DNA of 64,000 nt from Planctomycetota bacterium (GTDB lineage Bacteria > Planctomycetota > UBA1135 > UBA2386). Location of the stretch: NCBI GenBank assembly GCA_025459175.1, contig JALORC010000003.1, positions 6,819 to 70,818 on the forward strand, given 5' to 3'. The position numbers and the translations under genes are program-made. Numbering within the stretch: the stretch's first letter is position 1; every line of letters begins with the position of its first letter. Below the pieces are notes generated by a model that saw only the letters and a list, made by a program, of their open reading frames with translations, was not told where the DNA came from and did no database searches. Shown here one piece after another: positions 12,492 through 64,000 of the stretch.

Positions 12492-12529
12492 TCTCAGGTT
12501 GCGAGCGAAGCTGGCAATCTCCACTCGCT

Positions 12530-12952: not shown

Positions 12953-12959
12953 GACGTTC

Positions 12960-12974: not shown

Positions 12975-13013
12975 TCTTCGGCTCGGTCAAGCTGAAACTG
13001 TAGGGTGCGAAGC

Positions 13014-13858: not shown

Positions 13859-13870
13859 GCGGTCCTCGCG

Positions 13871-14083: not shown

Positions 14084-14206
14084 GATCGGGTCCTCGTTCG
14101 CGGCCCGCGACGGCGGGCACAACCAAGGGAGTCCCGCAGCGGCAGCGAGGATTCACCCCGGCACCGAACGACGAGTGCGCAGAGCCCGGCGGCCTTCGTG
14201 CGTAGT

Positions 14207-14779: not shown

Positions 14780-14800
14780 TCGGCGCGGATGGTACGGCGA

Positions 14801-16862: not shown

Positions 16863-16962
16863 GGATCGATCTCCGTTTCGGCAAGGAAAGCGCGCGGCAA
16901 CGCCACCGATCGCGGTCGGTTCCGCACGCCAGTCTATTGCCAGCCACGGCCAGCTGCACGGA

Positions 16963-18741: not shown

Positions 18742-18785
18742 GGCAGGCCGCGCACCTTACCGGTCGCGGCTCGCAGCCGCGCCCA

Positions 18786-19256: not shown

Positions 19257-19362
19257 GACGAGCGGGGAACATACCCGGACCATCCGCACCGCCGCCGCCG
19301 GCCCATCGCCAACACCATGATTCGCTCCGGTCGCCGCGCCGGCGCGGCCGATGCCATCGGCG

Positions 19363-20451: not shown

Positions 20452-21908
20452 CGCCGGTCGAACGGATCGAACCGCTGCACTGCCTCGGCGAGAGTCATTG
20501 CCTGCGCTTCCGCGATCGACTGTGGCGCGGCGAACGACCGGCGCGGCTGCTGCACGCGCGCAGCCATTTCCTGCCGGGTGTCGAGGCGAACAACTTCACC
20601 GCCGACGACGGCCTGCACGCGGACCTGGCGGCGGCACTGCTCGCGGCCGGCTTGTGCAGCGAGCACCGGCACGAGGACGGCAGCGTCACGGTCGAAGCGA
20701 GCCATCGTCCGACCACGTTCGCGACCCGGGTGCTGGCGGCGCGCCACGCGGCCCTCGCCGACGAACCGCTGCAGGCGCCGGCGCTGCTGCTGTTCGCCGG
20801 CGACAAGGAACTGCACTCGCTGGCGATGGCGATCGGGCCCGCGGTCGACTTCGAACTGCCGGGCGATCCGGGCTACGGCGCCGTGACGGGTGCCACCAGG
20901 GTGCCGTACGACACCGTCGAGGCCGCGTTCGCGGCGCGGCTCGAACCGTTCGGAGTGGGACTGCGCATGCTGCGGGACGCCGGCTTCGACCGCACGCTGG
21001 TGCACGGTCTGCTGCCGCGGGTCCGCGACGACGCGCGCAACGCGCAGTGGTGCCACGGCACGCAGCTGCCGGCCATCCTGCGCAGCAAGCTGGCGATCGT
21101 CGGCAATCGGCTGCTGGCCGCGGCGTGCCAGCGCGCCGGCATCGGTTTCGTCGACGTCTGGCCCGAGCTGGCCACTTCGGGCTATCTCGATCCGCGCTTC
21201 GACCTCGACGGCCTGCACGCCAATCACCTCGCCACCGAAGTGTCGCTGCCGACGATCGCGGCGGCGCTCGCGCGGCTGGAGTCCGCATGCATCAACGACG
21301 CCCAGTACGAGCTGCTGCACGAACTGGCGGTCGAGCGCGAGCCGGCGGCGGAGCCGCGCAGCGCGACGTTCGCCGCGGCCGGCTACTCGCTGTGGCCGGC
21401 ACCGATGGAGCCGTTGCGCGCCGGGGCTGGCGACGAACGGGTCGCGGCCGCGCTCACGCAGCCGGCGCTGCGCGACCTGCTGGAGGCCGGCTGGTCCCGC
21501 GAGTGCGGCCTGATCGGCATCACCGACGGAACCGGATCCGATCACCATGCAACGCCAACCAAGGCGGACACGGCCCGCGCGGCGATCTACGCCGCGGACC
21601 AGCCGCTTCAGGTTCGTTGCCTGCCGAGGGACGAATCGACCACTGCATCCAATCTGTCGCTGGCGGCCGGCGCCCTGCTGGTGTTCGACCCGGCGCGGGT
21701 GTCCGTTCAGTGTGAGTCACCGGGCCACGGGGCGCTGCAGCTGTACGTATTGCCGAGGCTGCCGGCCGAGGCGTTGCAAGTCGTGCGCCTGCCGACCGCC
21801 GCCTGGCCGGTCGATCCGTTCCGCGTCGCCGATGCGAACCCGGGCGCACCGGGCATCGTACGCCGCTGGCGTGAGGTCGCGGGCCGCACCGTGCTCACGA
21901 CGCCCTGA
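20448..21908 (+). CDS. Hypothetical protein with SGNH-hydrolase-like motifs
   Basis: CLGESH near the N-terminus and DGLHAN (DxxH); ATGA overlap with the GSCFA gene. Confidence 0.6.
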   Translation: MTPVERIEPLHCLGESHCLRFRDRLWRGERPARLLHARSHFLPGVEANNFTADDGLHADLAAALLAAGLCSEHRHEDGSVTVEASHRPTTFATRVLAARHAALADEPLQAPALLLFAGDKELHSLAMAIGPAVDFELPGDPGYGAVTGATRVPYDTVEAAFAARLEPFGVGLRMLRDAGFDRTLVHGLLPRVRDDARNAQWCHGTQLPAILRSKLAIVGNRLLAAACQRAGIGFVDVWPELATSGYLDPRFDLDGLHANHLATEVSLPTIAAALARLESACINDAQYELLHELAVEREPAAEPRSATFAAAGYSLWPAPMEPLRAGAGDERVAAALTQPALRDLLEAGWSRECGLIGITDGTGSDHHATPTKADTARAAIYAADQPLQVRCLPRDESTTASNLSLAAGALLVFDPARVSVQCESPGHGALQLYVLPRLPAEALQVVRLPTAAWPVDPFRVADANPGAPGIVRRWREVAGRTVLTTP

Positions 21909-22140
21909 ACGAGCCGCTGTCGCACCGCGCGATGCCATGGCGGTTCGGGCGACGGATCGGGCTGCACTCCCACGACGCGAGAACGACGACGCGACCGACG
22001 CGAATCCCCTGCCATCTACCGCGGGATCGAGCTGACGTCCGGTGGTATGGTGCGCCGGACACGGCGAGTCGGCCGGACGGTCGCGGTTTGTTCGGCCCCA
22101 CTGGCCAGGCCTCTTGCCACTGCCGAAGACGAACGTGCAC

Positions 22141-23178
22141 ATGCTCCGATCCCTCCTGCACGTCCTCCTGTTCCTCGCCGGGCTGCTCGGCACTGCGGCC
22201 ACCGTCCTCCACTGCGATGCGCTGCCGTTCTGGAGCTGGGCGCGCCAGAAGCTGGGCTACGCGCAACAGACGCTCGATCAGTGGGACACCCTGTTCGTCG
22301 GCAGCAGTCGTGTGCACCGCGGCATCGACCCGGCGGAGTTCGACCGGCGAGCCGCCGAGCTCGGCGTCGCCACCAGTTCGTACAACCTGGGCCTCGCCGG
22401 CGTGCGACCGATCGATTTCGTCCAGGTGATCGCATGGCTGTGCCAACAGCCGAAGCTGCGGGCGAAGCGCTGCATCATCGAGATCCACGGCCACGACCAG
22501 GTGCGCGCGCAGGCGAACCGGATGTCCGACACGATCATCGAAGTGCACCCGCCGAGCCTGCTCCCGCTCCGGGTCGAGGCGGCCTTCTGCTATCCGTACA
22601 CGAACCGGAAGCGGCTCGAACTGCTCGGCAACATCGGTGCGCACACGCTGGTCAACGGACTGCGCGTCGGACAAGGCACGCGCCTGCTCGACGATCTGCT
22701 GCGGACCGATCCGTTCGGGCCTCCATCCCCCGGCTACCAGGGGTTCGACGACGTGAAGTCCGAGCTGCAACAGCCCGAACGCAGGCGCAACAACGAGGAG
22801 TGGCTCGGGAACCCGGCAAAAGCCCAGGGCTATCTCGACTGGAAGGTCAAGGTGCCGCTACCGCCGCCGCTGGTCGGCGGACTCTCGACGGCCGTGATAC
22901 GCGAGCAAGCTCGCCTGCTGCGCGAGGTGGGCATCCGGCCGATCTTCGTGGTCATGCCGGTCTGGTCGCAGAGCCTGCAGGGGCGCGATGCGCTGCCCGA
23001 GCTCGCCAAGGAACTGGACATCGTCGTGCTGGACCGCCCGGACGAGTTCCCCGACCTGTTCCGGCACGAGGACTACTTCGACTCCGACCACCTGACAGCA
23101 GCCGGTGCCCAGCGGTTCTCGAAGTTCTTCGCCGAGACCCTGATCGAGCGCAAGCTGCTGACGGCGGACTCGCGCTGA
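22141..23178 (+). CDS. SGNH-like (DUF1574/DltD-like) exported protein
   Basis: N-terminal TM; FVGSSRVHRGIDP, YNLGLAG, FDSDHLTAAGA. Confidence 0.7.
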   Translation: MLRSLLHVLLFLAGLLGTAATVLHCDALPFWSWARQKLGYAQQTLDQWDTLFVGSSRVHRGIDPAEFDRRAAELGVATSSYNLGLAGVRPIDFVQVIAWLCQQPKLRAKRCIIEIHGHDQVRAQANRMSDTIIEVHPPSLLPLRVEAAFCYPYTNRKRLELLGNIGAHTLVNGLRVGQGTRLLDDLLRTDPFGPPSPGYQGFDDVKSELQQPERRRNNEEWLGNPAKAQGYLDWKVKVPLPPPLVGGLSTAVIREQARLLREVGIRPIFVVMPVWSQSLQGRDALPELAKELDIVVLDRPDEFPDLFRHEDYFDSDHLTAAGAQRFSKFFAETLIERKLLTADSR

Positions 23179-23206
23179 TCGCCGCGCCGAACGGCTGGTG
23201 TGCCCC

Positions 23207-25414
23207 TCAGCCGCCGATCGTGCTGCGCGCCGCGCCGGAGACGACGAAGCCGAACGAGTTGACGCTCGGATCGAACACCAGCCACTGGTGGTAGAGCCGA
23301 CCGCCGATCAGCGCCGCCTGGTCCGGGATCGGCAACGGCAGCGCAGCGCTGCCGCCCGCGTCGGTCGCGACGACCGCGGACAGGTCACCGGACGCGAACA
23401 GCTGGCACGGCCCCGCACCCGGGATCGTCCACGGCAGCGGGATGCCGGCGTAGCTGGTGTCCGAGAAGCCGGTCGCCAGCACCCCGAGGCTCAGGCCCTT
23501 GGCCCGCGCCAACGTGATCGAGAAGGTGCTGGCGACGATCGGCAACCCGGCGTTGCCGAGGGTCGGCACCGCGTTGTTGACGCCGCCGCCGCAACCGAGG
23601 CGCACCGCCGGCTGCTGGATCAACGTGGACTGCTGCCAGGTGCCGGTGCCCGGCGTGCGGTAGCAACCGACGCCCGCACTGCCCGCGGTCAACTCGCTGA
23701 CCGTGGTGGTCTGCGCCGAGTGGTCGATCGACACCCAGAAGGTGCCGTTCACCGCCACCGGGGTCGGCAGCGTCGCCGTGTAGAAGGCACCCACCGGCCC
23801 GACCGTGATGCTGGTCGACGCGAGCGGCGTGCCCGACGGCAGCGTGCCGTTCGTCGCGTAGACGTAGGCGCCGACCGTGACGTTGCCGCCGGTCGTGCTG
23901 CGCAGGAACACGTCGAACGACGACAGCGTCTCCGGCTGCGCGCTGCTGACGCGATAGGCGTACTCCCAGCTGCGCGTGAGGCCCTCGAGCACACCGCCGC
24001 CGGTGTTGACGCCGACGCAGGTCGGTGGCACCACGCCAGTGCCGGCGCAACCCTGCCCGTACGGCTCGAACAGCGCCGGATTGGCGAGTGCGGGCTCGGC
24101 GAGCTCGGCCAGGCCGGCGAGCACCGACTGCGTGATCATGCGCGACCGCACGAAGTCGTTGGTCGACTGCACGAAGTCGTCGTTGCTGGTGTGGATGAAG
24201 GGCGTCCAGTTGCCGAGATCCTCGAACGGGAACGCCGCGGCGAAGCCGTTCTCGAAGAACGCGCGGTGGTCGCTGGTGCCGGCACTCAGCGGACCGACGT
24301 TGGTCTGCAGCGCCGGCACGTAGGTCTGCGTCCAGCCGACCAGCGCGGTGATCAGGCTCGGGGTCGAGTCGTTGGTGACGTAGTCGACCGAGTAGGTGTC
24401 CCCGGGCGCCCGGTAGGCATTCATGTCGGTGTTGATGTAGGCGACGATCTGCTGGTTCTGCGCCGCCGCGTTCTGCGCGTATGCGCGCGATCCGACCAGT
24501 CCGAACTCCTCGGCGTTCCACCACGCGAAGCGCACCGTGCGACGGAACTGCCGGGTCGAGAAGATGCGCGCGATCTCGAGCACCGCGGCGGAGCCGGAGG
24601 CGTTGTCGTCGGCACCGGGCGAACGATTGGCGGCGGTGCCCGCGATCGAGTCCAGGTGCGCCCCGACCATCACGATCTCGTTCGCGAGTTCGGTGCCGGG
24701 AATCTCGACGACGATGTTGGGGCCGTACTGGGTGCTGAAGGTCTGCGTCGTGAACGGCAGGCCGAGCTGCGTCAGCCGGTTGGTCACGTAGGTGACGGCC
24801 TGCGCGTTCTCCGCCCGATTGGCGCGGCGGGTGAAGATCGCCGCCAGCGCCTGCACGTGGCTCGACAGGTTGGCCTGATTGACCTCCGCGACCATGGTCG
24901 CGATCCGCGGATCAGGGCCGGTGCCCAGCAAGCTCGCGGTCGCGGCGACCGGCGCCGTGCCCGTTCCGCGCGGCGCCGCATACGGCTGCGCCAGCGAGAA
25001 CACCTGCACGCCGCCGTGGAAGCCGGAGCTGTGGCAGTCGCTCGGCAACGTGGCCGGCACCGCAGCCGTGACGAACCAGCTGCGGCGCGCGCGCAGCAGG
25101 CGACCGTGGATCGCGCCCGCACCGCTGCGGGTGCGCGCCGAGACCACCAGCACTTCGCCGGGCTGGACCGGACCGAGCAGCTCGGTGGTGACGCCGGCCA
25201 CCGCGGCCTGCGCGGCGGCGGAGCCGAGCCGGGCGAGGCCGGTCCGACCGAGGTCGCCGTAGAACGCGCCGGCCTGGATCAGCGCCGTGCGCACGGTCAG
25301 GTCGGTGCCGAAGTCGACGAGGTGCAGGTCGCTGATCGGTTGGCCCGCGCTCTGCGCGGCGGGCGCGGCGGTCAGGAACGGCAGGACGAGGAGGGCGGAA
25401 AGCAGTCGGCGCAT
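23207..25414 (-). CDS. Secreted M28-family (leucyl) aminopeptidase with shared C-terminal domain
   Basis: Signal peptide; GAHLDS, PGADDNASG, NAEEFGLVGS, NTDM, SDH, IHTSND; ends YHQWLVFDPSVNSFGFVVSGAARSTIGG. Confidence 0.9.
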   Translation of the reverse strand: MRRLLSALLVLPFLTAAPAAQSAGQPISDLHLVDFGTDLTVRTALIQAGAFYGDLGRTGLARLGSAAAQAAVAGVTTELLGPVQPGEVLVVSARTRSGAGAIHGRLLRARRSWFVTAAVPATLPSDCHSSGFHGGVQVFSLAQPYAAPRGTGTAPVAATASLLGTGPDPRIATMVAEVNQANLSSHVQALAAIFTRRANRAENAQAVTYVTNRLTQLGLPFTTQTFSTQYGPNIVVEIPGTELANEIVMVGAHLDSIAGTAANRSPGADDNASGSAAVLEIARIFSTRQFRRTVRFAWWNAEEFGLVGSRAYAQNAAAQNQQIVAYINTDMNAYRAPGDTYSVDYVTNDSTPSLITALVGWTQTYVPALQTNVGPLSAGTSDHRAFFENGFAAAFPFEDLGNWTPFIHTSNDDFVQSTNDFVRSRMITQSVLAGLAELAEPALANPALFEPYGQGCAGTGVVPPTCVGVNTGGGVLEGLTRSWEYAYRVSSAQPETLSSFDVFLRSTTGGNVTVGAYVYATNGTLPSGTPLASTSITVGPVGAFYTATLPTPVAVNGTFWVSIDHSAQTTTVSELTAGSAGVGCYRTPGTGTWQQSTLIQQPAVRLGCGGGVNNAVPTLGNAGLPIVASTFSITLARAKGLSLGVLATGFSDTSYAGIPLPWTIPGAGPCQLFASGDLSAVVATDAGGSAALPLPIPDQAALIGGRLYHQWLVFDPSVNSFGFVVSGAARSTIGG

Positions 25415-50663: not shown

Positions 50664-52856
50664 ATGCCTCGACTCACACTCGTGCTGGTGCTGTGCGCCT
50701 TCGGGCCACTGCGCTCGCAACAGCTCAACTGGACTCCAGGCACGGCCGTCGAACCGTTCGGCACGCCCAATCTCGCGTTCGACGAACGTCGCAATCGCGC
50801 GGTGCTGGTGATGGACGACCAGACCTGGGAGTTCGATGGTGCGGCGTGGATACGGGCCGCTGCGACCCACGCCCCCGGCAACCGCACGTTACCAGGGCTG
50901 ACCTACGACCGCACAGGCGGCGTCACGTGGCTGTTCGGCGGCCTGCTCTCCGGTGCCGCGCAGAACGATCTGTGGACATGGGACGGCGCGGCCTGGACCG
51001 CAGTCGCGGCGCCAGCGGCGCCGCGCCCCGCACCTCGTTACGACACGGCGATCGCGCACGACACGGCCCGCAACCGGCTCGTGGTGTACGGCGGTCGCAC
51101 CCCGACGGGCTTGTCGAGCGAAACCTGGGAGTTCGATGGCGCGGCGTGGTCGCTGGCAACGCCCACGATCTCGCCGACGGCGCGACTCGGCCACGAACTC
51201 GTCTACGACCAACTCCGGGGGGTCACCGTGCTGTTCGGCGGCCTCGACTCCTCGCTGGCAACCCCGCTGGCGGAGACGTGGGAGTGGAACGGCACCAACT
51301 GGTCGCTGCGCAACTTGCCGCAGAACCCGTCTCCGCGCTACGCCGCCGGTCTCGCCTACGACCGCGCCCAGGCGCGCGTGTTGCTGCACGGCGGTCGCAT
51401 CAGCACGAGCGTCACGGGCTACGTGACCGACACCTGGGCCTATGACGGCGCGACGTGGACGGCGCTGCCGACCGGCGGCACGGTTCCACCCATCGAGGTG
51501 CCGGTGCGACTCTGCTTCGATCCCGCGCGCGGCGAAGCGGTCACCGTCCGCAGCAGAGCCGGCAGCTTGCAGACGTGGGCGTACGACGGTTCCACCTGGC
51601 GTTCCGTGCTGTCGAACCCGCAGCCGGGAGCACGCGACTTCAACACCTGCACCTACGATCCGGCGCGTGGCGTCGGCGTGATGTTCGGAGGTGGCGCCGG
51701 CACAGGCATCTCCTTCAACGACACCTACGACTACCGCGGCGGTGTCTGGCGCCGCATCCCCACCGCTGCGTGGCCTCCCGGGCAGGAGCCACTGGCCTAC
51801 GACCCGGTGAACGCGTCAGTGCTCATGTGGTTGGGCAACGCGGTGTGGCTGTTCGACGGCAACGCATGGACCTCACGGCAGCCGGCGGTGGTGCCGCCGT
51901 GGCGGGGTGGCTATGCGATGGCCACCGACCTCGCGCGTTCCCGCATCGTGCTGTTCGGCGGCGCCAACTTCTTCGGGACGATCAGCGGCGAAACCTGGGA
52001 GTGGGACGGCACCGTGTGGAGCCTGCGGCAGCCAGCGACAGCCCCGGCACCGCGCATATGGGCCGGCATGACCTACGATTCGCTGCGTCAGCGCATCGTG
52101 CTCTACGGTGGCAGTACTTCGACCCCGACGGAGACCGCTGCCAGTGACCACTGGGAATGGGACGGCACCACGTGGTTGCAGCGGAGTCCGGCAGCAGCAC
52201 CGGGCGATCGCATAGCGCCCGGCCTGGTCTTCGACGCGCAGCGCGGCGTCGTGCTGATGCATGGTGGCTCCTACTTGGTGTTCGGCTTCCGGATGCCTCG
52301 CAACGACACCTGGCAATGGAACGGTGTGGCTTGGACGATGCTTCCGGTTGCGTCGCCGCCGCCGACGCGCCGACACATCCCACTGTTCTACGACGCGGGC
52401 CTCGGACGCACGGTGCTGTTCAGCGGCGACCTGCGCAACGACGAATGGCTGCTGGGGCCGGTCTCGGCAGTGGCGGTGGCGAGCTACGGCACCGGCTGCC
52501 CGGGCACGTTCGGGGTGCCACACCTGCGCGGGCGTGGGCTGCCAGTTCCGGGCAACCGGTGGTTCGGCCTGCAGGTGTCGGCGATGGCACCCAACGCATT
52601 CACGGTAGTCGGCCTCGCCAGCAGCCCGCGGAACGCACCCATCGGCGGCGGTTGCACTCTGCTGATCGACGCACCGACGCTGCTGTGGGGCCTCGCCGAT
52701 GCCCGCGGTCAGCTCGAGTTCAACCTACCGCTCCCGAACGTGCCGGCGCTGCTGGGCGGCACCTTGTTCGCGCAGATCGCCGGGCTCGACCCCGCCGGTG
52801 CGTTCGGCGGCGTGCTGGCCGTCAGCCCCGGGCTGCGCATCGACATCGACCGCTGA
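50664..52856 (+). CDS. Secreted Kelch-like (TWEWDG) double propeller with shared C-terminal domain
   Basis: About 12 AYD..R..VLFGG..TWE/xWDG repeats; ends YGTGCPGTFG...FAQIAGLDP...SPGLRIDIDR. Confidence 0.88.
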   Translation: MPRLTLVLVLCAFGPLRSQQLNWTPGTAVEPFGTPNLAFDERRNRAVLVMDDQTWEFDGAAWIRAAATHAPGNRTLPGLTYDRTGGVTWLFGGLLSGAAQNDLWTWDGAAWTAVAAPAAPRPAPRYDTAIAHDTARNRLVVYGGRTPTGLSSETWEFDGAAWSLATPTISPTARLGHELVYDQLRGVTVLFGGLDSSLATPLAETWEWNGTNWSLRNLPQNPSPRYAAGLAYDRAQARVLLHGGRISTSVTGYVTDTWAYDGATWTALPTGGTVPPIEVPVRLCFDPARGEAVTVRSRAGSLQTWAYDGSTWRSVLSNPQPGARDFNTCTYDPARGVGVMFGGGAGTGISFNDTYDYRGGVWRRIPTAAWPPGQEPLAYDPVNASVLMWLGNAVWLFDGNAWTSRQPAVVPPWRGGYAMATDLARSRIVLFGGANFFGTISGETWEWDGTVWSLRQPATAPAPRIWAGMTYDSLRQRIVLYGGSTSTPTETAASDHWEWDGTTWLQRSPAAAPGDRIAPGLVFDAQRGVVLMHGGSYLVFGFRMPRNDTWQWNGVAWTMLPVASPPPTRRHIPLFYDAGLGRTVLFSGDLRNDEWLLGPVSAVAVASYGTGCPGTFGVPHLRGRGLPVPGNRWFGLQVSAMAPNAFTVVGLASSPRNAPIGGGCTLLIDAPTLLWGLADARGQLEFNLPLPNVPALLGGTLFAQIAGLDPAGAFGGVLAVSPGLRIDIDR

Positions 52857-53379: not shown

Positions 53380-55107
53380 TCAGTTGCCGATGGTACAGAG
53401 CAGGCCGTTGGAGGTCTGCAGTCCCATTGCAGTGTGCGGCGAGAACGCCACCGACTGCCCGCCGAACGAACTGCCGAGCAGGCTGGCACTGCCTGGCACG
53501 GTCAACGGGAACGTCGCGCTCCCGTTGTTGATCGGCAGGACCGCCGAGCCCAGAAACCCGCTGAGGTGGATCCAGCAGGACGGCGCACCGGTCGCGCCGA
53601 GGTCCACACCCGGGACAGTGTCGGACGCAAGAATCAGCAGCCCGAACGGGGCGAACACCGGCACGTTGGTGGTCGTGAACAGCATCGTGGTGCCCAGTGC
53701 GGGCGGGCTGCCGGCAAGGGTCAGCGGCAGCACGTTCGCGGTTCCGAGCGTGAACTGCACCGAGGGCTGCGAGATGTCGATCGGCAGCGGCAGGCGGTGC
53801 GTCGAATTCGGTTGGGGGCCGGGCGACCAGCCGACCAGGATCGTGCCGGTCGCCGTCGGCGGCATCTGCGCCACGCGATAGCGGTACTCGAAGTCGCCGT
53901 TGCTGCGCAGCGCGATCTGGAACGTGATCAGCGACTGTTGTGGCAATGGTGCGCTGGCGCCGTCGAGGGCGCACTCGCGCCAGGTCACGAAGGCGGTCTG
54001 GTTGTCCGGCGCGACGTCGAAGTAGACGCCGGCCGCGCCGCCGTTCACGTCGGGCCGCAGCGGGGCCCACAGCGGCGCCATCTTCGGCAGGCCGTTGACG
54101 AGGGTGTTGCCGTCCGCCTGCAAGTCGTCGGACGTGGCACTGTTGGGGCCCAGCAGCAGCAGCCCGTTCACCGATGCGTGCACGACCGACGTACTGCCGC
54201 CGCCGATCGGGAACGCGAACGGCAGGACCAGCGGTCGGGTGATGGAGTCCTGGCCGAGCGGCAGACCGCTGCCATTGGTGGTCAGCGGCGCGCCGCCGGG
54301 TTGGAACCAGCCGCCGACACCACTGCTGACGCTGTAGCCGCCCGCGCTCCGCGTGTGGATGAGTCGCCGCTCCTGCCCCGGGGCGCTGCCGAGATCGAAG
54401 GTTCCGGGCGACAAGAAGATCTTGTAGTAACCTGTATTGCTGTCCAGGCAGCCGTTGCCGACCGTGTTGACGGTGGCGCAGGTGGTGGACGGCGCGAAGG
54501 TGAGCCGCACCTGCATGGCACTGTGCGCACTTCCCGTGATCGGCACCTGACTCGACGGGGTAGCCGTCTCGGTGGAGATCCATGAATGGCCGGATGTGCG
54601 CAGCCAAAGGGTGCCGGACGGATTGGCGGCGATCGAAATGCGGATGCCGATGTCTCGCACGCCGTCCCACACGAAGCCGGCCGACTGCACACCGGGCAAC
54701 GAGACCCATTGGTTGGCCACCCAGGGGAGCGAGAACAGCCCTTGGGCCGGGGCGAACACGGTCACCGGTTGGTCGAGGTTGGTGTTCCAGTTGCCCGGGA
54801 TCGGTGGCGACACCGTCAGGTGGCCGATCTGGACCAACGCCGAACTGCACTGGAACACGCCGCTCGGGCCATTGGCATTGACCCCGGAAGCGGCGATCGC
54901 GAAATCGAGCAGCTGGGAGTTTGCACAGACCCCCGAGACCTTCAGGCGCGAGGCCGGGTAGAAGTGAATCGATGTGCGGCCGTTGGGGGCTGGATTGAGA
55001 AAGGGGCCGAGTGGGAAGCCGGTCGTGAAAGTGCTGTCGATGCCGACCACCTGCGCAGACAGCGGGGTGAGCAGCAACAGCCCGAACGAGACCAAATGAC
55101 AACGCAT
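53380..55107 (-). CDS. Secreted protein with nidogen-like domain and shared C-terminal domain
   Basis: Signal peptide; VGNGC; LPFAFPIGG..VNGLLLLG..MAPLW..VYFD..FVTW..TFQIALRSNGDFEYRY; ends MGLQTSNGLLCTIGN. Confidence 0.85.
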   Translation of the reverse strand: MRCHLVSFGLLLLTPLSAQVVGIDSTFTTGFPLGPFLNPAPNGRTSIHFYPASRLKVSGVCANSQLLDFAIAASGVNANGPSGVFQCSSALVQIGHLTVSPPIPGNWNTNLDQPVTVFAPAQGLFSLPWVANQWVSLPGVQSAGFVWDGVRDIGIRISIAANPSGTLWLRTSGHSWISTETATPSSQVPITGSAHSAMQVRLTFAPSTTCATVNTVGNGCLDSNTGYYKIFLSPGTFDLGSAPGQERRLIHTRSAGGYSVSSGVGGWFQPGGAPLTTNGSGLPLGQDSITRPLVLPFAFPIGGGSTSVVHASVNGLLLLGPNSATSDDLQADGNTLVNGLPKMAPLWAPLRPDVNGGAAGVYFDVAPDNQTAFVTWRECALDGASAPLPQQSLITFQIALRSNGDFEYRYRVAQMPPTATGTILVGWSPGPQPNSTHRLPLPIDISQPSVQFTLGTANVLPLTLAGSPPALGTTMLFTTTNVPVFAPFGLLILASDTVPGVDLGATGAPSCWIHLSGFLGSAVLPINNGSATFPLTVPGSASLLGSSFGGQSVAFSPHTAMGLQTSNGLLCTIGN

Positions 55108-56774: not shown

Positions 56775-57920
56775 TCACGACGGCGCGACGAGGTCACGCA
56801 ACATGGTCAAGGGCACACACTCGATGCCTTCGTCCAGCGCATACCGACGCGTCCCTGGATAGATCACGAACAGCCGATCGAGACGAAGGTCCGCCTGCGT
56901 CACCCGCATCGACTTGGTGACCCGCGGCGCGTCCTCGCGCTTCATCTCGACGCCGATGCGTTGACCGCGGTGCAGGAAGAACAGATCGAGTTCGGCACCC
57001 GCGTGCACCGAGTAGAACCACGCCTGATCCGGGCGGAACACTCGTAGCACTTCCTCGACGACGAATCCCTCCCAGGAGGCGCCGTGCTTCGGGTGCATCA
57101 ACAGCTGGGTGGAGTCCTGGATGCCCTGCAGCGCGTGGAACACACCGCTGTCGCGCAGATAGATCTTCGGACTCTTCACGGTGCGCTTGCCGAGGTTCTC
57201 GTGCCAGGGCTGCAGCACACGGACCATGAACGTCTGCTCCAGCGCGTCGAGATACTTGCGCGTCGTGTGTGGCGAGACGCCCATCGCCGATGCGATCTCG
57301 GCGCCGTTCCAGATCTGGCCGTGGTAGTGCGACAACATCGACCAGAAGCGACGCATTGCCGCCGGCGCCATGCCGAAGCCGAGTACACCGAGGTCGCGCT
57401 CGAGGAACGTGGTGAGGAAGTTCTGCCGCCAGCGGTAGCTGGCGCCGTCATCGGCGGCCAGGAACGAGCGCGGGAAGCCGCCGCGCACCCATAGCTTGTC
57501 GACGGCACCTCCACCGACCTCGCCGAGGTCGAAGCCGCGCAGTTCGACGATGTCGACCCGACCGGCGAGGGACTCGGCCGACTGGCGCGAGAGCTCGGGC
57601 GAGGCACTGCCGAGCACCAGGAACTTCGCCGGGGCCTCCGGCCGGTCGGCCAGCACGCGCAGGACCGGGAAGAGGTCGGGCTGGCGCTGGGCTTCGTCGA
57701 GAACGACCAACCCGCGGAGCGAACGCAGCACGGTCATCGGTTGCGCCAGTGCCGCCGCGGCGGCCGGGTCTTCGAGATCGAAGAAGTGCACCTCACCTGA
57801 CGGCGATAAGTCCCTTGCCATGGTTGACTTACCACACTGCCTCGGCCCGACCAGCAAGGCCACGGGGCTGCGCTCGAGGGCCACACGCAGCTCCAGCTTG
57901 TAGCTATCCCTCGAGATCAT
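56775..57920 (-). CDS. AAA_14 ATPase with DUF4143 (PD-(D/E)XK-like C-terminus)
   Basis: LVGPRQCGKST, VLDEAQR, LGSAS, ESLAGR, RGGFP, VKSPKIYLRDSG, GASWEG, ELDL..GVEMK. Confidence 0.92.
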   Translation of the reverse strand: MISRDSYKLELRVALERSPVALLVGPRQCGKSTMARDLSPSGEVHFFDLEDPAAAAALAQPMTVLRSLRGLVVLDEAQRQPDLFPVLRVLADRPEAPAKFLVLGSASPELSRQSAESLAGRVDIVELRGFDLGEVGGGAVDKLWVRGGFPRSFLAADDGASYRWRQNFLTTFLERDLGVLGFGMAPAAMRRFWSMLSHYHGQIWNGAEIASAMGVSPHTTRKYLDALEQTFMVRVLQPWHENLGKRTVKSPKIYLRDSGVFHALQGIQDSTQLLMHPKHGASWEGFVVEEVLRVFRPDQAWFYSVHAGAELDLFFLHRGQRIGVEMKREDAPRVTKSMRVTQADLRLDRLFVIYPGTRRYALDEGIECVPLTMLRDLVAPS

Positions 57921-58050
57921 GGGTGAAATCATGCACTCACAGTGCAATATTTCAACCATCGGACAGCTACGCGGGCGCGGTCGCAAAGCCGCCCCGCGAT
58001 CAGGCATTCGGCAGTCCCGAAGCGCCGCCCCCGCTCGGGACCTCGCCGCC

Positions 58051-60828
58051 TCACTGATTCACGATCGCCCCCGCCCCACCGCGCGGCGTGCGGTCCGCAT
58101 CGATCCAGTTGTTCAGCACGATGCCCGTCGCCGGATCCGCCAGCTTCCGCGCCAGCGTCCCGCCGAGCGGCCCCGCCATGTTCGGATCGGTCGCCCCGTC
58201 GCGCCGGTTCGGCCCCACCACCGGCAGGTCCAGCGGCTGGTTGCTCGAACCGTTGCTGACGCCGTTGCTGTCGACCACGCGGTCGAGGTCGTACTTCACC
58301 TGCGCCGGGTTGAACTGATTCGCCGGCGCCACACCGTCACTGCCGTAGCGGTTCGGGTTCTGGTCGAGCGGGTTCTGCGCCGCGCCGTTCTGGTCGAACA
58401 ACCACAGCCCGGTGCCGAGCCCCGCCACCATGTGCACGAAGAACGGCGAGTCCATCTGGTTGCCCGGGTTGCGGCCGATGTGCTGCTTCAGCAGCTGGAA
58501 CGGCAGGTTGCCGAAGTCGTTGTTCGCCAGGGTGGTGCGGAACTGCTGGTACTGCGCGCCATAGGTCGCGACCGAGTTGTCGGTCAGGTGGCACGACACG
58601 CAGTAGCGCGGCCCCTCGTCGGTCGGGCTCACGCGGCCGCGGATGCTGTGCGCGAGGAACGCGTTGTGGCCGAGCGACGGATACGGCCGCGCCTGCGTGT
58701 TGCCGCCGCCGCCGTTGCGGTCGGTGAACGCGAACACCGGCGTGCGGTCGTCGTTGAGGTCCTTGTAGCGGAAGAACACCTTGGTGTTGGTCGCCGACGT
58801 GCGGACCTTGTTGTCCATGCCGATGCCGAGGAAGAACGGCACCGGCGACTGGTAGACGAACTCGGCGAACCGCTGGCGGAACACGATGCGCTCGCCGGTG
58901 ATGTTGCTGAAGTTGTTGCCCTCGTTGTACTCACCCTCGAGGTGGCAACCGATGCAGCTGTTGCTCCACGCCGAGTGGCACGACGCGCACTGCATCGAGT
59001 CCATGTGGCTGAAGCCGGCGTGCGGGTTGTTCTGCTGCGGGCCGATGCCCGTGGCCGGGTCGCCGTCGTCGCGGCCCATCGCGAAGCTGCCCATCGCCGT
59101 GTAGATCGCCTCGCCCGTGGTCGGGTGCAGCTTGCCGCTGTCGACGATCACGTCGCGGACCTGGCGGATGTAGTGACGGCGGCCGTCGAGCTTGCTGGTC
59201 AGCCAGAAGTTGCCCGACGCGTCGCGTTCGACGTGGCGCAGCGGGTTGCCCTCGCTGTCGACGCCGAGCGTGGCGGTCTGACCGCTGTAGTTCTCGCCGG
59301 TGGTCGTGTTGGCGTAGGCGGTGGCGCTGCCGTGGCAGTCCTCGCAGCGGATCGTGATCGCGTGACCCATGCGGCTGACGATGTCGCCGCCGTTCGGCGC
59401 ACTCACGTTGCCGTGCAGGTCGACGGTGCCGTGGCAGTCGACGCAGCCCATGCCGGCCTCGTAGTGCACGTCGGCCGGCGTGTCGTCACGACCGTCGCCG
59501 TCGTAGTCCTCGCGCAACAGGTACTGGTTGTGGTTGCGACCGTTGAAGGTGCGGTTGTCGACCGCCGGGTCGAACAGGCGCGTGTCGTTGCGCGTGGTCG
59601 TGAAGCTGACCGGGTTGGCCGGGTACTGGAAGCCGCGCACCACGTCCTGGTTCTGGTCGAGGCGGATGCCCCAGTACTGCATCACCATGCGGTTGCTGCC
59701 CTGGTGGCAGCCCGCACAGGTGTGGTCGTCGATGCCCTGCACCGTGGTGCCGTTGGCGAGTGTGCGGGCGACGCCGCGCACGCGGTGCGAACGGATGTGC
59801 GCGCGCTCCGGGTCGTCGATGTCGTCCGGGTCGAGCGGCTCGTTCTTCGGCACGTTCGGGTCCTGGCTGCGGCTGCGACCGTCCTGGCTGTACGGCATGT
59901 GACAGGCCGAACAACCCGACGGGCGGAAGTCGCCGTAGCGGTTGTTGGCGCCGCTGCTGCCGAGGTGGCAGTCACCGCACGTGAACGCGACCTGCTCCTG
60001 GTAGAGCTTCGCGAGCCGCGAGCCACTGATCAGCGAACCATCCGGGTTCACGTCGTTGACCAGGTTGGCGGCGGTGAAGTCCTGGTTGCGGAAGATGTTC
60101 TCCGGCGCCTGCACCCGCTTGCTCCACACCTGCGGCTCGATCAGCCGACCGATCTTGCCCTCGTTGAGCGGATCGTGCACATGGGTCGGGTCCTCGACCG
60201 CGCGCCAGCCGTAGTCGGCGGCGTTGTCCTCGAACAGCCCGCGGTGCTCCGGGATCGCGTTCTCGATGCCGACGGCATAGAACGCGCCCGAGAAGATGCC
60301 CATCTCGGTGCCGAGCGGCGCCCGGCTCATGCTGGTCGCGTGCGCCGGGTGGCACTCACCACAACCGCGCTCGCGGCTGGTGACGCGCAGGTCGCCGGGG
60401 TTGAGGAACTGCAGGTAGTCGATGCCGGTGTAGGTGACGCCGTTGACCGTGTAGTCGGCGACCTTGTCGATGCCGGCCAGCGTCAGCTTGTTGAACCACG
60501 CATGCGCGTCGATGTCCTGCTGCGCACGGTCACCGATCGACGGCGGCGGCGGCACGTGGCTGCTCAGCATGTCGATGCCGTCGGGATTGCCGCCGTGGCA
60601 CTTCGTGCACAGCAGCATCTCGGCATCGCCGGGGAACGCGTGCGGGTTCTCCAGACCGGGACCGGCGTAGTCGTTGTGCAGCGAGCCGTTGTGGCACTTC
60701 ATGCACGACTCGGCGGTGGTGACCGCACCGGTGCGGCCCGACTGGTCGACGCACGACGTCTGCAAGGCCGAGGTCACCAGCACCACGGCGGTGCCGGCCA
60801 GAGCCAGATAGCGAATCGGATGATGCAT
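58051..60828 (-). CDS. 11-heme c-type cytochrome lipoprotein
   Basis: Probable lipoprotein signal ..VLVTSALQTSC; CxxCH motifs CMKCH, CTKCH, CGECH, CGDCH, CSACH, CAGCH, CVDCH, CEDCH, CASCH, CIGCH, CVSCH. Confidence 0.92.
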   Translation of the reverse strand: MHHPIRYLALAGTAVVLVTSALQTSCVDQSGRTGAVTTAESCMKCHNGSLHNDYAGPGLENPHAFPGDAEMLLCTKCHGGNPDGIDMLSSHVPPPPSIGDRAQQDIDAHAWFNKLTLAGIDKVADYTVNGVTYTGIDYLQFLNPGDLRVTSRERGCGECHPAHATSMSRAPLGTEMGIFSGAFYAVGIENAIPEHRGLFEDNAADYGWRAVEDPTHVHDPLNEGKIGRLIEPQVWSKRVQAPENIFRNQDFTAANLVNDVNPDGSLISGSRLAKLYQEQVAFTCGDCHLGSSGANNRYGDFRPSGCSACHMPYSQDGRSRSQDPNVPKNEPLDPDDIDDPERAHIRSHRVRGVARTLANGTTVQGIDDHTCAGCHQGSNRMVMQYWGIRLDQNQDVVRGFQYPANPVSFTTTRNDTRLFDPAVDNRTFNGRNHNQYLLREDYDGDGRDDTPADVHYEAGMGCVDCHGTVDLHGNVSAPNGGDIVSRMGHAITIRCEDCHGSATAYANTTTGENYSGQTATLGVDSEGNPLRHVERDASGNFWLTSKLDGRRHYIRQVRDVIVDSGKLHPTTGEAIYTAMGSFAMGRDDGDPATGIGPQQNNPHAGFSHMDSMQCASCHSAWSNSCIGCHLEGEYNEGNNFSNITGERIVFRQRFAEFVYQSPVPFFLGIGMDNKVRTSATNTKVFFRYKDLNDDRTPVFAFTDRNGGGGNTQARPYPSLGHNAFLAHSIRGRVSPTDEGPRYCVSCHLTDNSVATYGAQYQQFRTTLANNDFGNLPFQLLKQHIGRNPGNQMDSPFFVHMVAGLGTGLWLFDQNGAAQNPLDQNPNRYGSDGVAPANQFNPAQVKYDLDRVVDSNGVSNGSSNQPLDLPVVGPNRRDGATDPNMAGPLGGTLARKLADPATGIVLNNWIDADRTPRGGAGAIVNQ

Positions 60829-60920
60829 GGTTGTGCTCCCCTTCTCGGACCCGCGCACGGGCCCCGGTTGCCCGAGTGTCGAACTCATCGACACGCGGAC
60901 GTCATTCACGAAGTCCCCGG

Positions 60921-60955
60921 TCCCGGAACGGGACGGCAGCCGTCCCGCGCCGGGA
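60921..60955. terminator. Intercistronic stem-loop
   Basis: tcccgg-aa-cgggacgg-cag-ccgtcccg-cg-ccggga directly after the 7-heme gene stop; no U-tract. Confidence 0.5.
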
Positions 60956-60960
60956 TCCCC

Positions 60961-61611
60961 TCATCGCACCGTCGCCGGCCGCCAGCCGACCGGCATGTGA
61001 CAGCGGTCGCAGCGATCGACCCAGCCGAGCCCGATGTGCGGCGGGTTGGTCGTGCGCGCCGCCTCGTCGAAGTGGCAGCTCGAGCAGTCGGGATCGGTCG
61101 GTCGGAAGTTCTGCACCGACGCCCCGGCATGGCAACGATGGCAGGCGACCTGCAGGTGCGCGCCGGTCAGCGGCAAGCGCGTGTGCAGGTGCGCGGTGCG
61201 GGCGGTCGGCACGAACCACGTCGACTCGTCGTGGCAGCGCGCGCAGTCGAGCCCGAGCTCGCCGTAGTGCACGTCGGCGTGACAGCCGGCACAGCCCTGC
61301 ACGTGGAACGTCGCCACCGGACCACGGTCGTTGTGACAGCGCAGACACGCCGCCTCGGCGTGCGCGCCGTTCAGCGGCACCCCGGTGCGCGCGCCGTGGT
61401 CGAACACGAAGTCGGTGACCATCTCGTTCCACGACGCGCCGGCATGACACAGCTTGCAGTCGCCGGGGAACGACTCGTGCGGCACGACCAGGCCGAAGCC
61501 GGCCCACCACCGATGCAGCTCCCCCCGACCGGGGGCCGTGACCGTGCAGGCGACGATCGCCAGCGCCATCGCCAGCATCGTGAACAGACCGAAGTGAGGT
61601 TTCTTGTCCAT
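60961..61611 (-). CDS. 7-heme c-type cytochrome lipoprotein
   Basis: MDKKPHFGLFTMLAMALAIVAC lipobox; CKLCH, CLRCH, CAGCH, CARCH, CHRCH, CSSCH, CDRCH. Confidence 0.92.
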   Translation of the reverse strand: MDKKPHFGLFTMLAMALAIVACTVTAPGRGELHRWWAGFGLVVPHESFPGDCKLCHAGASWNEMVTDFVFDHGARTGVPLNGAHAEAACLRCHNDRGPVATFHVQGCAGCHADVHYGELGLDCARCHDESTWFVPTARTAHLHTRLPLTGAHLQVACHRCHAGASVQNFRPTDPDCSSCHFDEAARTTNPPHIGLGWVDRCDRCHMPVGWRPATVR

Positions 61612-61622
61612 GGCGGTCGTCC

Positions 61623-63290
61623 TCAGAAGTGCCGCTGCACGTAGATGCCGATGCCGAACGACAGCTGGTCGTCCCACAGGGTGCCGTCGCCGAAGAAGGT
61701 CGCGTTCCAGTTGCCGCCGAGGTCGGTGGTCCACAGGCCGCCGAGCCGATGCTGCAACAGGTCGTCGCGGTCGTTCGGGAAGCCCTGGTGGTGCACGAAG
61801 CCGAGCTCGTAGAGCAGGTCCAGGCGCCCGAACGAGTATTGCCCGCCGTGCTGGATGCGCCCGCCGAACAGGTTGGTGGCGAGCCCCTGCACCTGGAACA
61901 GCGCCAGCGTCGTGCGCGCCCGTTCCTGCAGCAGACCGTCGACCTCGACGCCGAGCTCGGCGGCGCCGCCGCTGCGCTCCTCGTCGATCCAGCCGGTGAG
62001 CCGGGTGAACCACCGCGAGCCATCGCTGCCGAACACGTACCCGTGCAGCGAGATGCGGTCCTGGTGCGCGTCGACCAGCGTCGCCGGCTGGATCGTCTGC
62101 GGCAGCTCCCTGCGCAGCAGCTCGGGATACTCCTCGTGGTCGTAGAGGAACTCGAGGCCGCCCTGCTTCGCCCAGCGCCGACTGGCGAACAAGTTCGCGC
62201 GCGACAGCTCGACGTTCTCGTCCTTGAGGTCGTCACCGGCGGTGTAGAAGTCGATCCACAGCGCCCCCTGCAGGTCCCAGCCCTCGAGCGGCAGATAGCG
62301 GCCTTTCAGCACCACGAGGTCGCGATCGGCGTCCCAGCGATGCCAGGTCTTCTGGTAGCCGACGGCGAAACTCAAGCGCTCGGCGACGTCCTGGTTCCAC
62401 ACGTACCAGGCCGCGAGCTGCAGGTCGGCGAACGACTCGAGATCCTCGTCGAGCTCGGGCAGGTAGCCGAAGCTGGCGCCGAAGCGATCGCCGCCCTCGC
62501 TGCGATGGCCGACCTCGACGCCGTCGAGGATGCCGAACTCGGGCATGTCGCGCTGCAGGAAGCGGCCGACCTGCCAGCGCCACGGTTCGAAGCGGTTGCC
62601 GCCGCGTTCGTAGCTGAGTTCGAAGAGGCGCAGGTCGGTGCCGGTGTTCTCCGACGTCTCGGTGCTCCAGTTCAGATCGCCGTGGAACCGCAGGATGCCA
62701 CCGTCGCCGCGCAGGTTGTCGATCTCGACGTCGGCGCCGGTGTTCAGGAACGACTGCGACCACGAGTTCAGCGTGCGCACGAGGTTGGCGGAGCCGTACA
62801 GGCGACCGGTCATCGAACTCGGCCGCTCGGCGGGCCGCGGCGGGCGCGTGGTACCGAGCAGCGGCATGCCCGGCTGCCACTCGTCCTCGGCCGGCGCCGG
62901 CTTCGGTGCCGGCTCCGTGGCGGTCCCTGGCGCGGTCGGAGCGACGGACGTCGATGGCGCCGCGGCGGCGCGCCGCGCGCTCGGCACCATCACGTGACCG
63001 CGGGTGCCGACCTGGATCACCACACTCGGATCGGCGAGCTCGACGACCGCGACGCGATCGCCGACCTCGACCACGGTGCCGGGCAGCGGCTGACCGTTGC
63101 GCGGCGCGAGCAGCACCCGGTCGCCGACCTCGACGAGATCGCGCTTGCCACGATCGACGACGCAGGCGCCGTTCGGCCGCAGCGACGACACGCGCAGCGC
63201 CACCTGCTCGACGGCGCCGTCCTGGGCCAGCGCCAGCGCACCGGTCGCCAACACGGCCAACAGCGATCGTGGTTCGTTTCGCATCGTCAT
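61623..63290 (-). CDS. Outer-membrane beta-barrel (putative cytochrome-associated porin) with N-terminal small beta domain
   Basis: Signal peptide; Pro/Ala linker; alternating amphipathic strands; C-terminal FGIGIYVQRHF (terminal Phe, BAM-type beta-signal); ATGA overlap with the upstream cytochrome. Confidence 0.8.
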   Translation of the reverse strand: MTMRNEPRSLLAVLATGALALAQDGAVEQVALRVSSLRPNGACVVDRGKRDLVEVGDRVLLAPRNGQPLPGTVVEVGDRVAVVELADPSVVIQVGTRGHVMVPSARRAAAAPSTSVAPTAPGTATEPAPKPAPAEDEWQPGMPLLGTTRPPRPAERPSSMTGRLYGSANLVRTLNSWSQSFLNTGADVEIDNLRGDGGILRFHGDLNWSTETSENTGTDLRLFELSYERGGNRFEPWRWQVGRFLQRDMPEFGILDGVEVGHRSEGGDRFGASFGYLPELDEDLESFADLQLAAWYVWNQDVAERLSFAVGYQKTWHRWDADRDLVVLKGRYLPLEGWDLQGALWIDFYTAGDDLKDENVELSRANLFASRRWAKQGGLEFLYDHEEYPELLRRELPQTIQPATLVDAHQDRISLHGYVFGSDGSRWFTRLTGWIDEERSGGAAELGVEVDGLLQERARTTLALFQVQGLATNLFGGRIQHGGQYSFGRLDLLYELGFVHHQGFPNDRDDLLQHRLGGLWTTDLGGNWNATFFGDGTLWDDQLSFGIGIYVQRHF

Positions 63291-64000
63291 TGCCTCCGGC
63301 GCCGGAACGCCGCACCGCCCTCTTCCCGTCCGTGACAGTCGACACACTCCACCGGCAACGGCTTGAAGCGCGTCACCGTCTTGCCCTCGATCGACTCCGG
63401 CTTGTGACAGCTCGCGCACGGCACCTTGCTGTGCTGGTCGCCGAGCTGGAAGCGCGAGTCGAGGTTGTGGCGGAACGACAGCGTCGCGAACGTGGTCGTG
63501 CTCTTGTGGCAGCGGTTGCAGTCGGTCTGACCGAGCCGCTCGAACTGCCGCTGGTGCGGATCCCGATGGCAATCGGCGCAGTCGCGGCCCGCGGCCTGCC
63601 GCCAGGTGCGACCGGCCGCGTCCGCGGTCGGCAGTCGTTCGTGGCAGCTCGTGCAGTCGAGCTCGGCGTGCCGCCCGGCCAGCACGTAGCCGGTCGCGGC
63701 GCCGTGGTCGAAGCCGTGCGGCAACGCGCGGAACGACGCGGTGTCGTGGCACCGCACACAGCCGGATCGACCGTCGATCGCGGTCGGCAGCGCGCCGCGA
63801 TCGAACGCCCCGGCGTGCGGGTCGCCGTGGCAGGTCGCACACGATGCGACCCCGGCACCGTGCTCGGGGATGCGCCCGAAGCGCCGCCCCAGTGGATCGG
63901 GGGCCGACGTGCGCGCGTGGCAATCGGTGCACTCGATCTGCGCGTGGGCGCCGTCGATGCGGAAGCCGGTCCAGTCGGCGTGGTCGAAGCGAGCGTGATC
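63287..64000 (-). CDS. C-terminal part of a large modular multiheme cytochrome c (5' end outside the window)
   Basis: Frame is open to the window edge; 8 CxxCH (CTDCH, CATCH, CVRCH, CTSCH, CADCH, CNRCH, CASCH, CVDCH) in repeated FDH..TG/SF.L.G.H modules. Confidence 0.92.
   Translation of the reverse strand, partial: DHARFDHADWTGFRIDGAHAQIECTDCHARTSAPDPLGRRFGRIPEHGAGVASCATCHGDPHAGAFDRGALPTAIDGRSGCVRCHDTASFRALPHGFDHGAATGYVLAGRHAELDCTSCHERLPTADAAGRTWRQAAGRDCADCHRDPHQRQFERLGQTDCNRCHKSTTTFATLSFRHNLDSRFQLGDQHSKVPCASCHKPESIEGKTVTRFKPLPVECVDCHGREEGGAAFRRRRQ

Follow-up and report, generated by a model that had tools for sequence, protein, structure and literature searches.

Does a bacterium of the phylum Planctomycetota encode, in a single operon, a path for electrons from the cytoplasm to the cell surface? 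Extracellular electron transfer is known mainly from Shewanella and Geobacter. In these bacteria, CymA-, ImcH- or CbcL-type proteins draw electrons from the quinone pool, and surface cytochromes evolve fast; to our knowledge, metal respiration is not known in the Planctomycetota outside the anammox bacteria. The question is raised by one end of a 64,000-nucleotide (nt) stretch of contig JALORC010000003.1 (assembly GCA_025459175.1, positions 6819 to 70818), which as a whole we call the window. At this end, a reading made from the DNA letters (the sequence-only reading) had noted genes for three multiheme cytochromes and a β-barrel protein and had proposed a trans-outer-membrane electron conduit. 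Our analyses of sequence and predicted structure indicate that this locus is the distal part of a six-gene operon, and we assign a probability of about 0.6 to the view that the operon encodes a self-contained electron-transfer chain of the porin-cytochrome kind that would cross the whole cell envelope.

Gene content of the operon and predicted properties of its products

The genes lie on the minus strand in the order DUF2959-oxred-mhcA-barrel-lipo7-lipo11. The contig was followed beyond the window end (locus L001), and positions upstream of that end are given as window-equivalent coordinates. The lipoprotein-like DUF2959 gene (∼67591 to 68175, outside the window) ends ∼12 nt before oxred (65347 to 67578, also outside the window), which encodes a predicted membrane iron-sulfur flavoprotein of 743 residues. 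The oxred stop codon is overlapped, as GTGA, by the GTG start of mhcA (63287 to 65350, of which 63287 to 64000 lie in the window), the gene for a 23-heme cytochrome. The TGA stop of mhcA in turn overlaps the ATG of the barrel gene (61623 to 63290) as ATGA. The barrel protein has 555 residues, a signal-peptide-like N terminus and a C-terminal Phe, and its stop codon is 11 nt from lipo7 (60961 to 61611), which encodes a lipoprotein-like 7-heme cytochrome of 216 residues. After a spacer of 132 nt (60829 to 60960) follows lipo11 (58051 to 60828), the gene for a lipoprotein-like cytochrome with 11 CxxCH motifs; its length of 925 residues is counted from the chosen ATG, with the N terminus ...LQTSC.

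The four co-oriented genes, the ATGA overlap and the 11-nt gap described in the sequence-only reading are all present on the minus strand, and our recount of the heme motifs in the window (8 in the visible part of mhcA, 7 and 11) gave the same total of 26. The gene set had been drawn too short, as it runs on upstream of the window into oxred and DUF2959; the complete cluster holds 41 CxxCH motifs. The upstream sequence, in which that reading had proposed to look for the full heme count and for a quinol oxidase or cytochrome b partner, brought the mhcA count to 23 CxxCH in 687 residues and showed a fused iron-sulfur flavoprotein with a membrane domain resembling a di-heme cytochrome b; neither a NapC/CymA-type quinol dehydrogenase gene nor an NrfD-type gene was found in the operon.

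The product of 61623 to 63290 modeled as a β-barrel, as had been claimed for it. The AlphaFold2 model, built on 43 sequences, has a mean predicted local distance difference test score (pLDDT) of 85.9 and contains 22 β-strands between residues 159 and 554. The earlier figure of about 400 residues for the barrel region holds, with the correction that, after the signal helix, a small β domain (residues 27 to 103) and a disordered Pro/Ala-rich linker (residues 111 to 140) precede the barrel. The last residue is Phe in 70 of 74 homologs. When the model was compared with the Protein Data Bank (PDB) using Foldseek, the best matches of the barrel were usher and porin barrels with TM-scores of 0.3 to 0.44, and MtrB was not among the best 50. 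No Pfam or NCBIfam match was found at E ≤ 0.01, and a profile of the 43 sequences searched against PDB sequences at E ≤ 10 returned nothing beyond two spurious matches. A database search yielded 235 homologs; among the best 120 of these, all named ones are hypothetical proteins and nearly all organism labels read Planctomycetes or Planctomycetota. From the model, we conclude that the protein is a predicted outer-membrane barrel of a family without a described relative. The resemblance of its N-terminal domain to an MreC-barrel-like domain was set aside, as the match was weak (E 0.0027, below the cut-off) and gave no function.

The cytochrome mhcA has a single N-terminal hydrophobic segment and is composed of c7/c3-type units; its C-terminal 237 residues, which are those in the window, hold 8 of the 23 motifs. 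Its best PDB profile match is the GSU1996-type dodecaheme 3ov0, with chain 6r2q_A lower in the list, a chain that we take to be MtrA although the table labels it otherwise. Residues 500 to 682 matched the DmsE/MtrA model TIGR03508 with an E value of 2.5e-13 and 50.1 bits, which is below the cut-off of 192.2, and the score against ExtN was 29 bits, below the NCBIfam cut-off of 200. In an alignment of homologs (A4), all 23 motifs and exactly 23 further His residues are invariant. This is as expected if every heme had two His ligands, and all mhcA hemes are probably bis-His.

The lipo7 protein, which with ∼28 residues per heme is as densely packed as mhcA, matched Cytochrome_C7 with 32 bits, and a Cys directly follows its hydrophobic N-terminal stretch in all 60 homologs, 58 of which fit a loose lipobox pattern. 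lipo11 has one heme per 84 residues. In an alignment of 36 sequences (A2), C26, all 11 motifs and exactly 11 further His residues are invariant; 13 of 54 homologs fall outside even the loose lipobox pattern. No CxxCK or other variant heme motif was found. Scores of lipo11 against ExtM (67.5 bits, NCBIfam cut-off 800) and against PF22113, the MtrC/MtrF domain II/IV (18.1 bits, cut-off 30), are below threshold, and some homologs carry a precomputed PF22113 match. A fold search with the lipo11 model (pLDDT 69.5, built without hemes) gave no PDB match at E ≤ 0.001. In a language-model atlas, its nearest neighbors are generic c7/c3 multiheme families, including ExtM-like and MtrC-domain ones, which we treat as a lead only. 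We regard lipo11 as a candidate for the terminal (surface) redox protein of the system. Its assignment as an NrfA- or octaheme-type enzyme was rejected, as the PDB sequence matches to NrfA and MccA are at the level of motifs only and the fold search was empty.

The oxred protein begins with a hydrophobic helix and an Arg-rich stretch, and contains a ferredoxin-like Fer4_10 domain (40.9 bits) and a two-Rossmann Pyr_redox_3 domain (121 bits, above the cut-off of 30). Across 30 sequences, the two GxGxxG-type motifs (181 to 188 and 333 to 340) are invariant, as are 7 Cys residues that make up a full CxxCxxCxxxCP motif and a second motif with three Cys, and the His pairs H548-x13-H562 and H713-x13-H727. 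These pairs lie in the hydrophobic segments 549 to 567 and 715 to 733; there are six such segments in all, five of them in the C-terminal 290 residues. The best NCBIfam equivalog, YpdA, scored 140 bits against a cut-off of 340. The C-terminal domain has matches below cut-off to DUF4405 (23 bits, cut-off 26.7), Ferric_reduct (16.9 bits, cut-off 28) and Cytochrome_B (12.2 bits, cut-off 27.2). Pfam matches to these families are carried by some oxred homologs, and one homolog is named "thioredoxin reductase/cytochrome b561" in one source. The His pairs suggest a di-heme b wire in the membrane, and the spread of Lys and Arg residues would put the large domains in the cytoplasm with one His of each pair near each membrane face. 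The simplest reading is that oxred is a flavoprotein that would pass electrons through iron-sulfur clusters to two b hemes across the inner membrane.

Conservation of the cluster among relatives

A scan with one genome per species returned 80 related loci, nearly all of which are labeled as Planctomycetota or as unclassified bacterial metagenome-assembled genomes (MAGs); one is labeled Paracoccaceae. Of the 47 loci with long enough flanks, 45 have oxred, mhcA, barrel, lipo7 and lipo11 in this order. The synteny across planctomycete MAGs that the sequence-only reading had proposed to test was found, and the barrel homologs are almost always linked to multiheme cytochromes. The two exceptions are L042, in which the two upstream genes are missing, and L079, in which the lipo7 position (11614 to 12936) is taken by a lipoprotein-like cytochrome of 440 residues with 17 CxxCH motifs and mhcA has 26 motifs; no lipo11 was found within 10 kb downstream in this locus. 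DUF2959 lies upstream in 47 of 54 loci. As to the junctions, oxred and mhcA overlap in 50 of 54 loci and mhcA and barrel in 39 of 57, and barrel and lipo7 are within 60 nt of each other in all 58. Heme counts are 23 in 59 of 62 mhcA homologs, 7 in 59 of 60 lipo7 homologs and 11 in every one of 54 lipo11 homologs.

Divergent barrels occur in the same kind of cluster. In L082, L083 and L084 (genomes G382, G234 and G165), barrels that are 22 to 25% identical to that of the window stand in the order oxred, 20-heme cytochrome, 10- or 15-heme lipo7 relative, barrel. In L082 and L083, the barrel is followed by an 11-heme protein that is 58 to 61% identical to lipo11; no lipo11 match was found in the stretch fetched for L084. 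Together, the colinearity, the junctions and these ∼24% identical barrels argue that the association of barrel and cytochromes is old and strict. Moreover, frames with four or more CxxCH motifs are rare in the host: a six-frame scan of the 7.5-Mb assembly found 19 such stop-to-stop frames, three of which are the cluster genes. This rarity and the retention of heme counts in relatives argue that the cluster is not a product of chance, and chance co-location of the genes is ruled out by the synteny counts.

The barrel is present in 25 of 41 relatives of the window genome, some of which have two copies that are ∼40% identical to each other, and, with a stricter filter, in at least 35 of 401 Planctomycetota genomes from an even sample of the phylum. 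The labels of barrel-carrying MAGs point to wastewater, groundwater, marine and cave studies. Among the five genes, lipo11 has the highest identity in 43 of 45 loci and the barrel the lowest in 44 of 45. A lipo11 homolog of 942 residues, 60% identical (P0351), bears the locus tag of the cultured "Planctomycetes bacterium Poly30". This organism is Saltatorellus ferox according to the text of preprint 10.1101/817700, in which the word "cytochrome" is absent. The homolog may make the idea of an envelope-spanning chain testable at the bench in a culturable organism.

In relatives, lipo7 and lipo11 are separated by 138 nt at the median and by at least 79 nt in all 45 loci measured, unlike the genes at the other junctions, which overlap or stand close together. 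In the window, a long GC-rich hairpin follows directly on the lipo7 stop, with a fold energy of −81.2 kcal/mol (z = −2.06), and no consensus promoter or terminator was found in the spacer. The hairpin may act in processing, stabilization or attenuation and thereby separate lipo11 from the genes before it. A promoter and terminator scan of 57900 to 64000 gave one promoter-like site at 57955 to 57928, downstream of lipo11, and one terminator-like site within lipo11, neither of which is usefully above shuffled controls. In some relatives (L017 at 12293 to 16550, and L027, L036, L044, L054 and L073), several kb are inserted between lipo7 and lipo11; the L017 insert contains an 867-residue open reading frame (ORF) that by eye has the look of a hybrid sensor kinase/response regulator, together with two genes on the opposite strand.

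Two metatranscriptome runs (X23 and X24) contain contigs of 130 to 350 nt that are 90 to 97% alike and lie mostly over lipo11. These runs were chosen by this sequence, DNA is possible in such libraries and gaps in the cover carry no meaning; the contigs hint at most at expression in relatives, not in this strain.

Proposed electron path and comparison with known systems

In the path that we propose, electrons would enter at the cytoplasmic NAD(P)H-type flavoprotein domain of oxred and, if the predicted cofactor sites are occupied, would pass from FAD to the ferredoxin-like iron-sulfur domain and on to two b hemes, held by the invariant His-x13-His pairs in transmembrane helices 4 and 6. They would next be taken up by the 23-heme mhcA, whose N-terminal helix probably anchors it in the inner membrane and which would be long enough for the periplasm. 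The outer membrane would be crossed at the 22-strand barrel, possibly threaded by the MtrA-like C terminus of mhcA, by lipo7 or by both. Finally, lipo11, if exposed at the surface, would reduce an acceptor that is extracellular or sits on the cell surface; candidates are Fe(III), Mn(IV), a specific oxidant in solution or humic substances. Outward flow is favored on bioenergetic grounds, as export from NAD(P)H would run downhill and with the membrane potential, which the reverse would not. A complex prediction for barrel residues 150 to 555 with mhcA residues 430 to 687 gave a score of 0.00 in two runs without controls and is uninformative either way.

This arrangement resembles MtrCAB of Shewanella in that one gene cluster encodes a predicted heme-dense periplasmic cytochrome, outer-membrane barrel and large lipoprotein cytochrome. 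The C-terminal 180 residues of mhcA also align weakly with the DmsE/MtrA decaheme model and with chain 6r2q_A, and lipo11 gives a faint MtrC/MtrF domain II/IV signal. However, all three Mtr family models are missed here or remain below threshold, and the statement in the sequence-only reading that the locus does not look like MtrAB was upheld: scores stay under the DmsE/MtrA and PF22113 thresholds, and for the barrel neither a Pfam or NCBIfam match (E ≤ 0.01), MtrB/PioB included, nor a sequence relative in the PDB was found. The predicted barrel has 22 strands and an extra N-terminal domain, whereas MtrB, which the fold search did not bring up among its best 50 matches, has 26 strands. Further, mhcA has 23 hemes and its own membrane helix, and the place of the CymA-type quinol dehydrogenase appears to be taken by a fused iron-sulfur flavoprotein with a b-heme-like domain.

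A second comparison is with the Ext conduits of Geobacter. In ExtABCD, according to the text of PMC6148476, an 18-strand barrel is accompanied by a small lipoprotein cytochrome with 5 hemes and a large one with 12, and the present operon likewise pairs one small with one large lipoprotein cytochrome. The two lipoproteins, which had been taken as a mark of distinctness, therefore lose that meaning; the conduit proposal is supported in part, by the barrel model and the linkage to cytochromes. The cluster as predicted would also fit the architectural criteria for Geobacter conduit clusters given in that text. For the first of these, mhcA offers its 23 CxxCH motifs and a predicted N-terminal export or anchor segment; the integral outer-membrane β-sheet protein corresponds to the barrel prediction. 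On the lipoprotein point, lipo7 and lipo11 are candidates, each with a conserved Cys after a hydrophobic N terminus. However, ExtM and ExtN family membership is not reached (67.5 vs. 800 bits and 29 vs. 200 bits, respectively), and the inner-membrane input differs. Overall, this looks like an operon that would function as MtrCAB or ExtABCD does, yet it fails the sequence tests for the Mtr and Ext families.

The input module can be compared with ferric reductases and NADPH oxidases (FRE/NOX enzymes) and with other di-heme b transmembrane electron carriers. As in these, a cytoplasmic nucleotide-dependent flavin domain would be joined to membrane helices, with two His pairs 13 apart placed for one heme near each membrane face, and the matches below cut-off to Ferric_reduct, DUF4405 and Cytochrome_B fall on a His-bearing helix. 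Unlike them, oxred combines a two-Rossmann Pyr_redox_3/thioredoxin-reductase-like domain with a ferredoxin-like domain in place of the FNR-type dehydrogenase of NOX, all of its Pfam heme-b matches are below cut-off, and its acceptor would be a 23-heme cytochrome rather than oxygen or Fe(III).

Searches of article texts found none that describes the operon, the barrel family or the fused b-heme flavoprotein. The text of a 2026 MAG survey (PMC13264449) describes a group of porin-cytochrome clusters built around undecaheme cytochromes or cytochromes with >20 hemes. It also reports porin-cytochrome clusters in two Planctomycetota MAGs and notes ferredoxin-NADP+ reductase genes beside another cluster group. 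One of our related loci (L043) is labeled isolate SAR44, in the naming style of that survey, whose main text does not name SAR44. A 2023 study (PMC10732223) reports in its text porin-cytochrome genes in Planctomycetota OFTM MAGs, and several OFTM MAGs are among our related loci. The text of preprint 10.64898/2026.05.27.727921 deals with Acidobacteriota and Verrucomicrobiota clusters, and the string "Planctomycet" does not occur in PMC11475568.

Competing explanations and the host genome

Several observations weigh against an envelope-spanning electron chain. The family is known from genes and predictions alone. The barrel appears unrelated in sequence to MtrB/PioB or to any PDB chain, and with ushers and general porins as its closest folds, it could act as a channel for solutes. 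Because oxred falls far under every named NCBIfam cut-off (140 vs. 340 bits for the best), NAD(P)H is a donor that we infer, and the second iron-sulfur motif has three conserved Cys only. The orientation of lipoproteins is not predictable in planctomycetes. According to the text of PMC6148476, the outer lipoproteins are the most variable components in Geobacter, whereas here the large lipoprotein is the most conserved; that it remains 58 to 61% identical where the barrel is down to ∼24% fits a specific enzyme better than a promiscuous mineral reductase. Finally, the host has aerobic oxidases and a more canonical NapC-fed cluster with an MtrC domain, described below, that would be able to serve ordinary extracellular electron transfer.

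The strong conservation of lipo11 keeps alive the idea of an enzyme for a soluble substrate. Specifically, the operon could encode a multiheme reductase in the periplasm or at the inner leaflet of the outer membrane, with lipo11 as the enzyme, the barrel as a channel for substrate and product, as its porin and usher folds would allow, and mhcA and lipo7 feeding electrons. We consider this unlikely, at perhaps one chance in several. Weak motif-level matches to NrfA and MccA surround CHMPY-type heme sites in lipo11, and its nearest named NCBIfam and atlas families include ExtM, of a selenite/tellurite operon; Geobacter ExtI offers a parallel, as a porin-like protein that, according to the text of PMC5877670, is needed to reduce selenite and tellurite. 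The matches to NrfA and MccA, however, have E values of 0.004 to 0.9. Moreover, 11 invariant His residues outside the motifs for 11 hemes, with no CxxCK motif, suggest that all lipo11 hemes are six-coordinate electron carriers, and a 23-heme wire, a 7-heme lipoprotein and tight translational coupling to a barrel would be more than the supply of electrons to a periplasmic enzyme requires.

Electrons might instead flow inward, in the manner of MtoAB and PioAB, with extracellular Fe(II) or Mn(II), reduced humic substances or a partner cell as their source. In principle, porin-cytochrome hardware can run either way; the text of PMC13264449 cites undecaheme cytochromes for Tenderiales that oxidize iron, and several of the related MAGs (OFTM) come from studies of iron- and manganese-oxidising biofilms (text of PMC10732223). 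This direction is nevertheless improbable, as the inner-membrane module would end in an NAD(P)H-type flavoprotein and not in an oxidase or the quinone pool, and reduction of NAD(P)+ by Fe(II) would be uphill, with inward electrons opposing the membrane potential.

Within the outward path, the purpose could be other than respiration. By analogy with eukaryotic FRE/NOX enzymes, NAD(P)H might drive ferric reduction for iron uptake, extracellular superoxide formation or detoxification at the surface. A flavoprotein from which electrons would go to two b hemes spanning the membrane would suit such a role, as would the high conservation of lipo11 and the fact that no quinol-dehydrogenase gene was seen in the operon; electron export from NAD(P)H would conserve no energy, and the host has both aerobic oxidases and a separate NapC-fed cluster. 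However, 41 hemes would be costly for iron uptake, no iron-transport or Fur-type genes were visible beside the operon on the contig (by eye, no search made), and nothing links the system to oxygen. We give this sub-case little weight.

Returning to the envelope-spanning chain, a more specific form of it can be offered tentatively. The operon might be a quinone-independent wire from cytoplasm to surface, in which lipo11 would be the surface enzyme for one extracellular reaction, like a NOX/FRE system lengthened through the outer membrane and widespread in a little-studied planctomycete radiation to which the shapeshifting Saltatorellus clade belongs; we think this possible, at odds clearly below even. 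If the envelope-spanning chain is real, a conduit family would be added in the Planctomycetota, with a different entry, namely a flavoprotein with its own b-heme wire that links the cytoplasmic NAD(P)H pool directly to the surface, and with a strongly conserved terminal cytochrome that points to a defined substrate. If active, it would bear on iron, manganese and humic cycling by abundant heterotrophs.

The host assembly encodes heme-copper oxidases, Omp85-family proteins, Lgt and a CcsA-type cytochrome c assembly protein; the machinery for such a system is thus present, and the organism would not be an obligate anaerobe. A second porin-cytochrome-like cluster lies on the minus strand of contig C145 (∼16190 to 23340; L085, 4188 to 11337). 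It encodes a NapC/NirT-type 5-heme membrane cytochrome, a 13-heme cytochrome, a 934-residue decaheme protein with the MtrC/MtrF domain II/IV (137 bits) and a 703-residue ORF without a Pfam family that ends in ...TWTF. The presence of this more canonical cluster in the same assembly suggests a separate role for the system in the window. A third multiheme locus is found on the plus strand of contig C230 (∼9830 to 19140; L086, 1833 to 11139), with a 1523-residue 10-heme protein that contains LVIVD repeats, a 17-heme cytochrome and an 809-residue Pyr_redox_3 flavoprotein with a weak C-terminal 2Fe-2S match; this locus resembles the "large decaheme plus ferredoxin-NADP reductase" group in the text of PMC13264449.

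Three further genes of the window were noted. An ORF of 410 residues (56775 to 58007, minus strand), 43 nt downstream of lipo11, contains a Walker-A-like GPRQCGKST motif and resembles, by eye, an AAA ATPase of the DUF4143 kind. Beyond it, the minus-strand ORF at 53380 to 55107 encodes a large secreted-looking protein of 575 residues, and the plus-strand ORF at 50664 to 52856 encodes a secreted-looking protein of 730 residues with many repeats of the W-x-F/W-D-G-x-x-W type that look Kelch- or propeller-like by eye.

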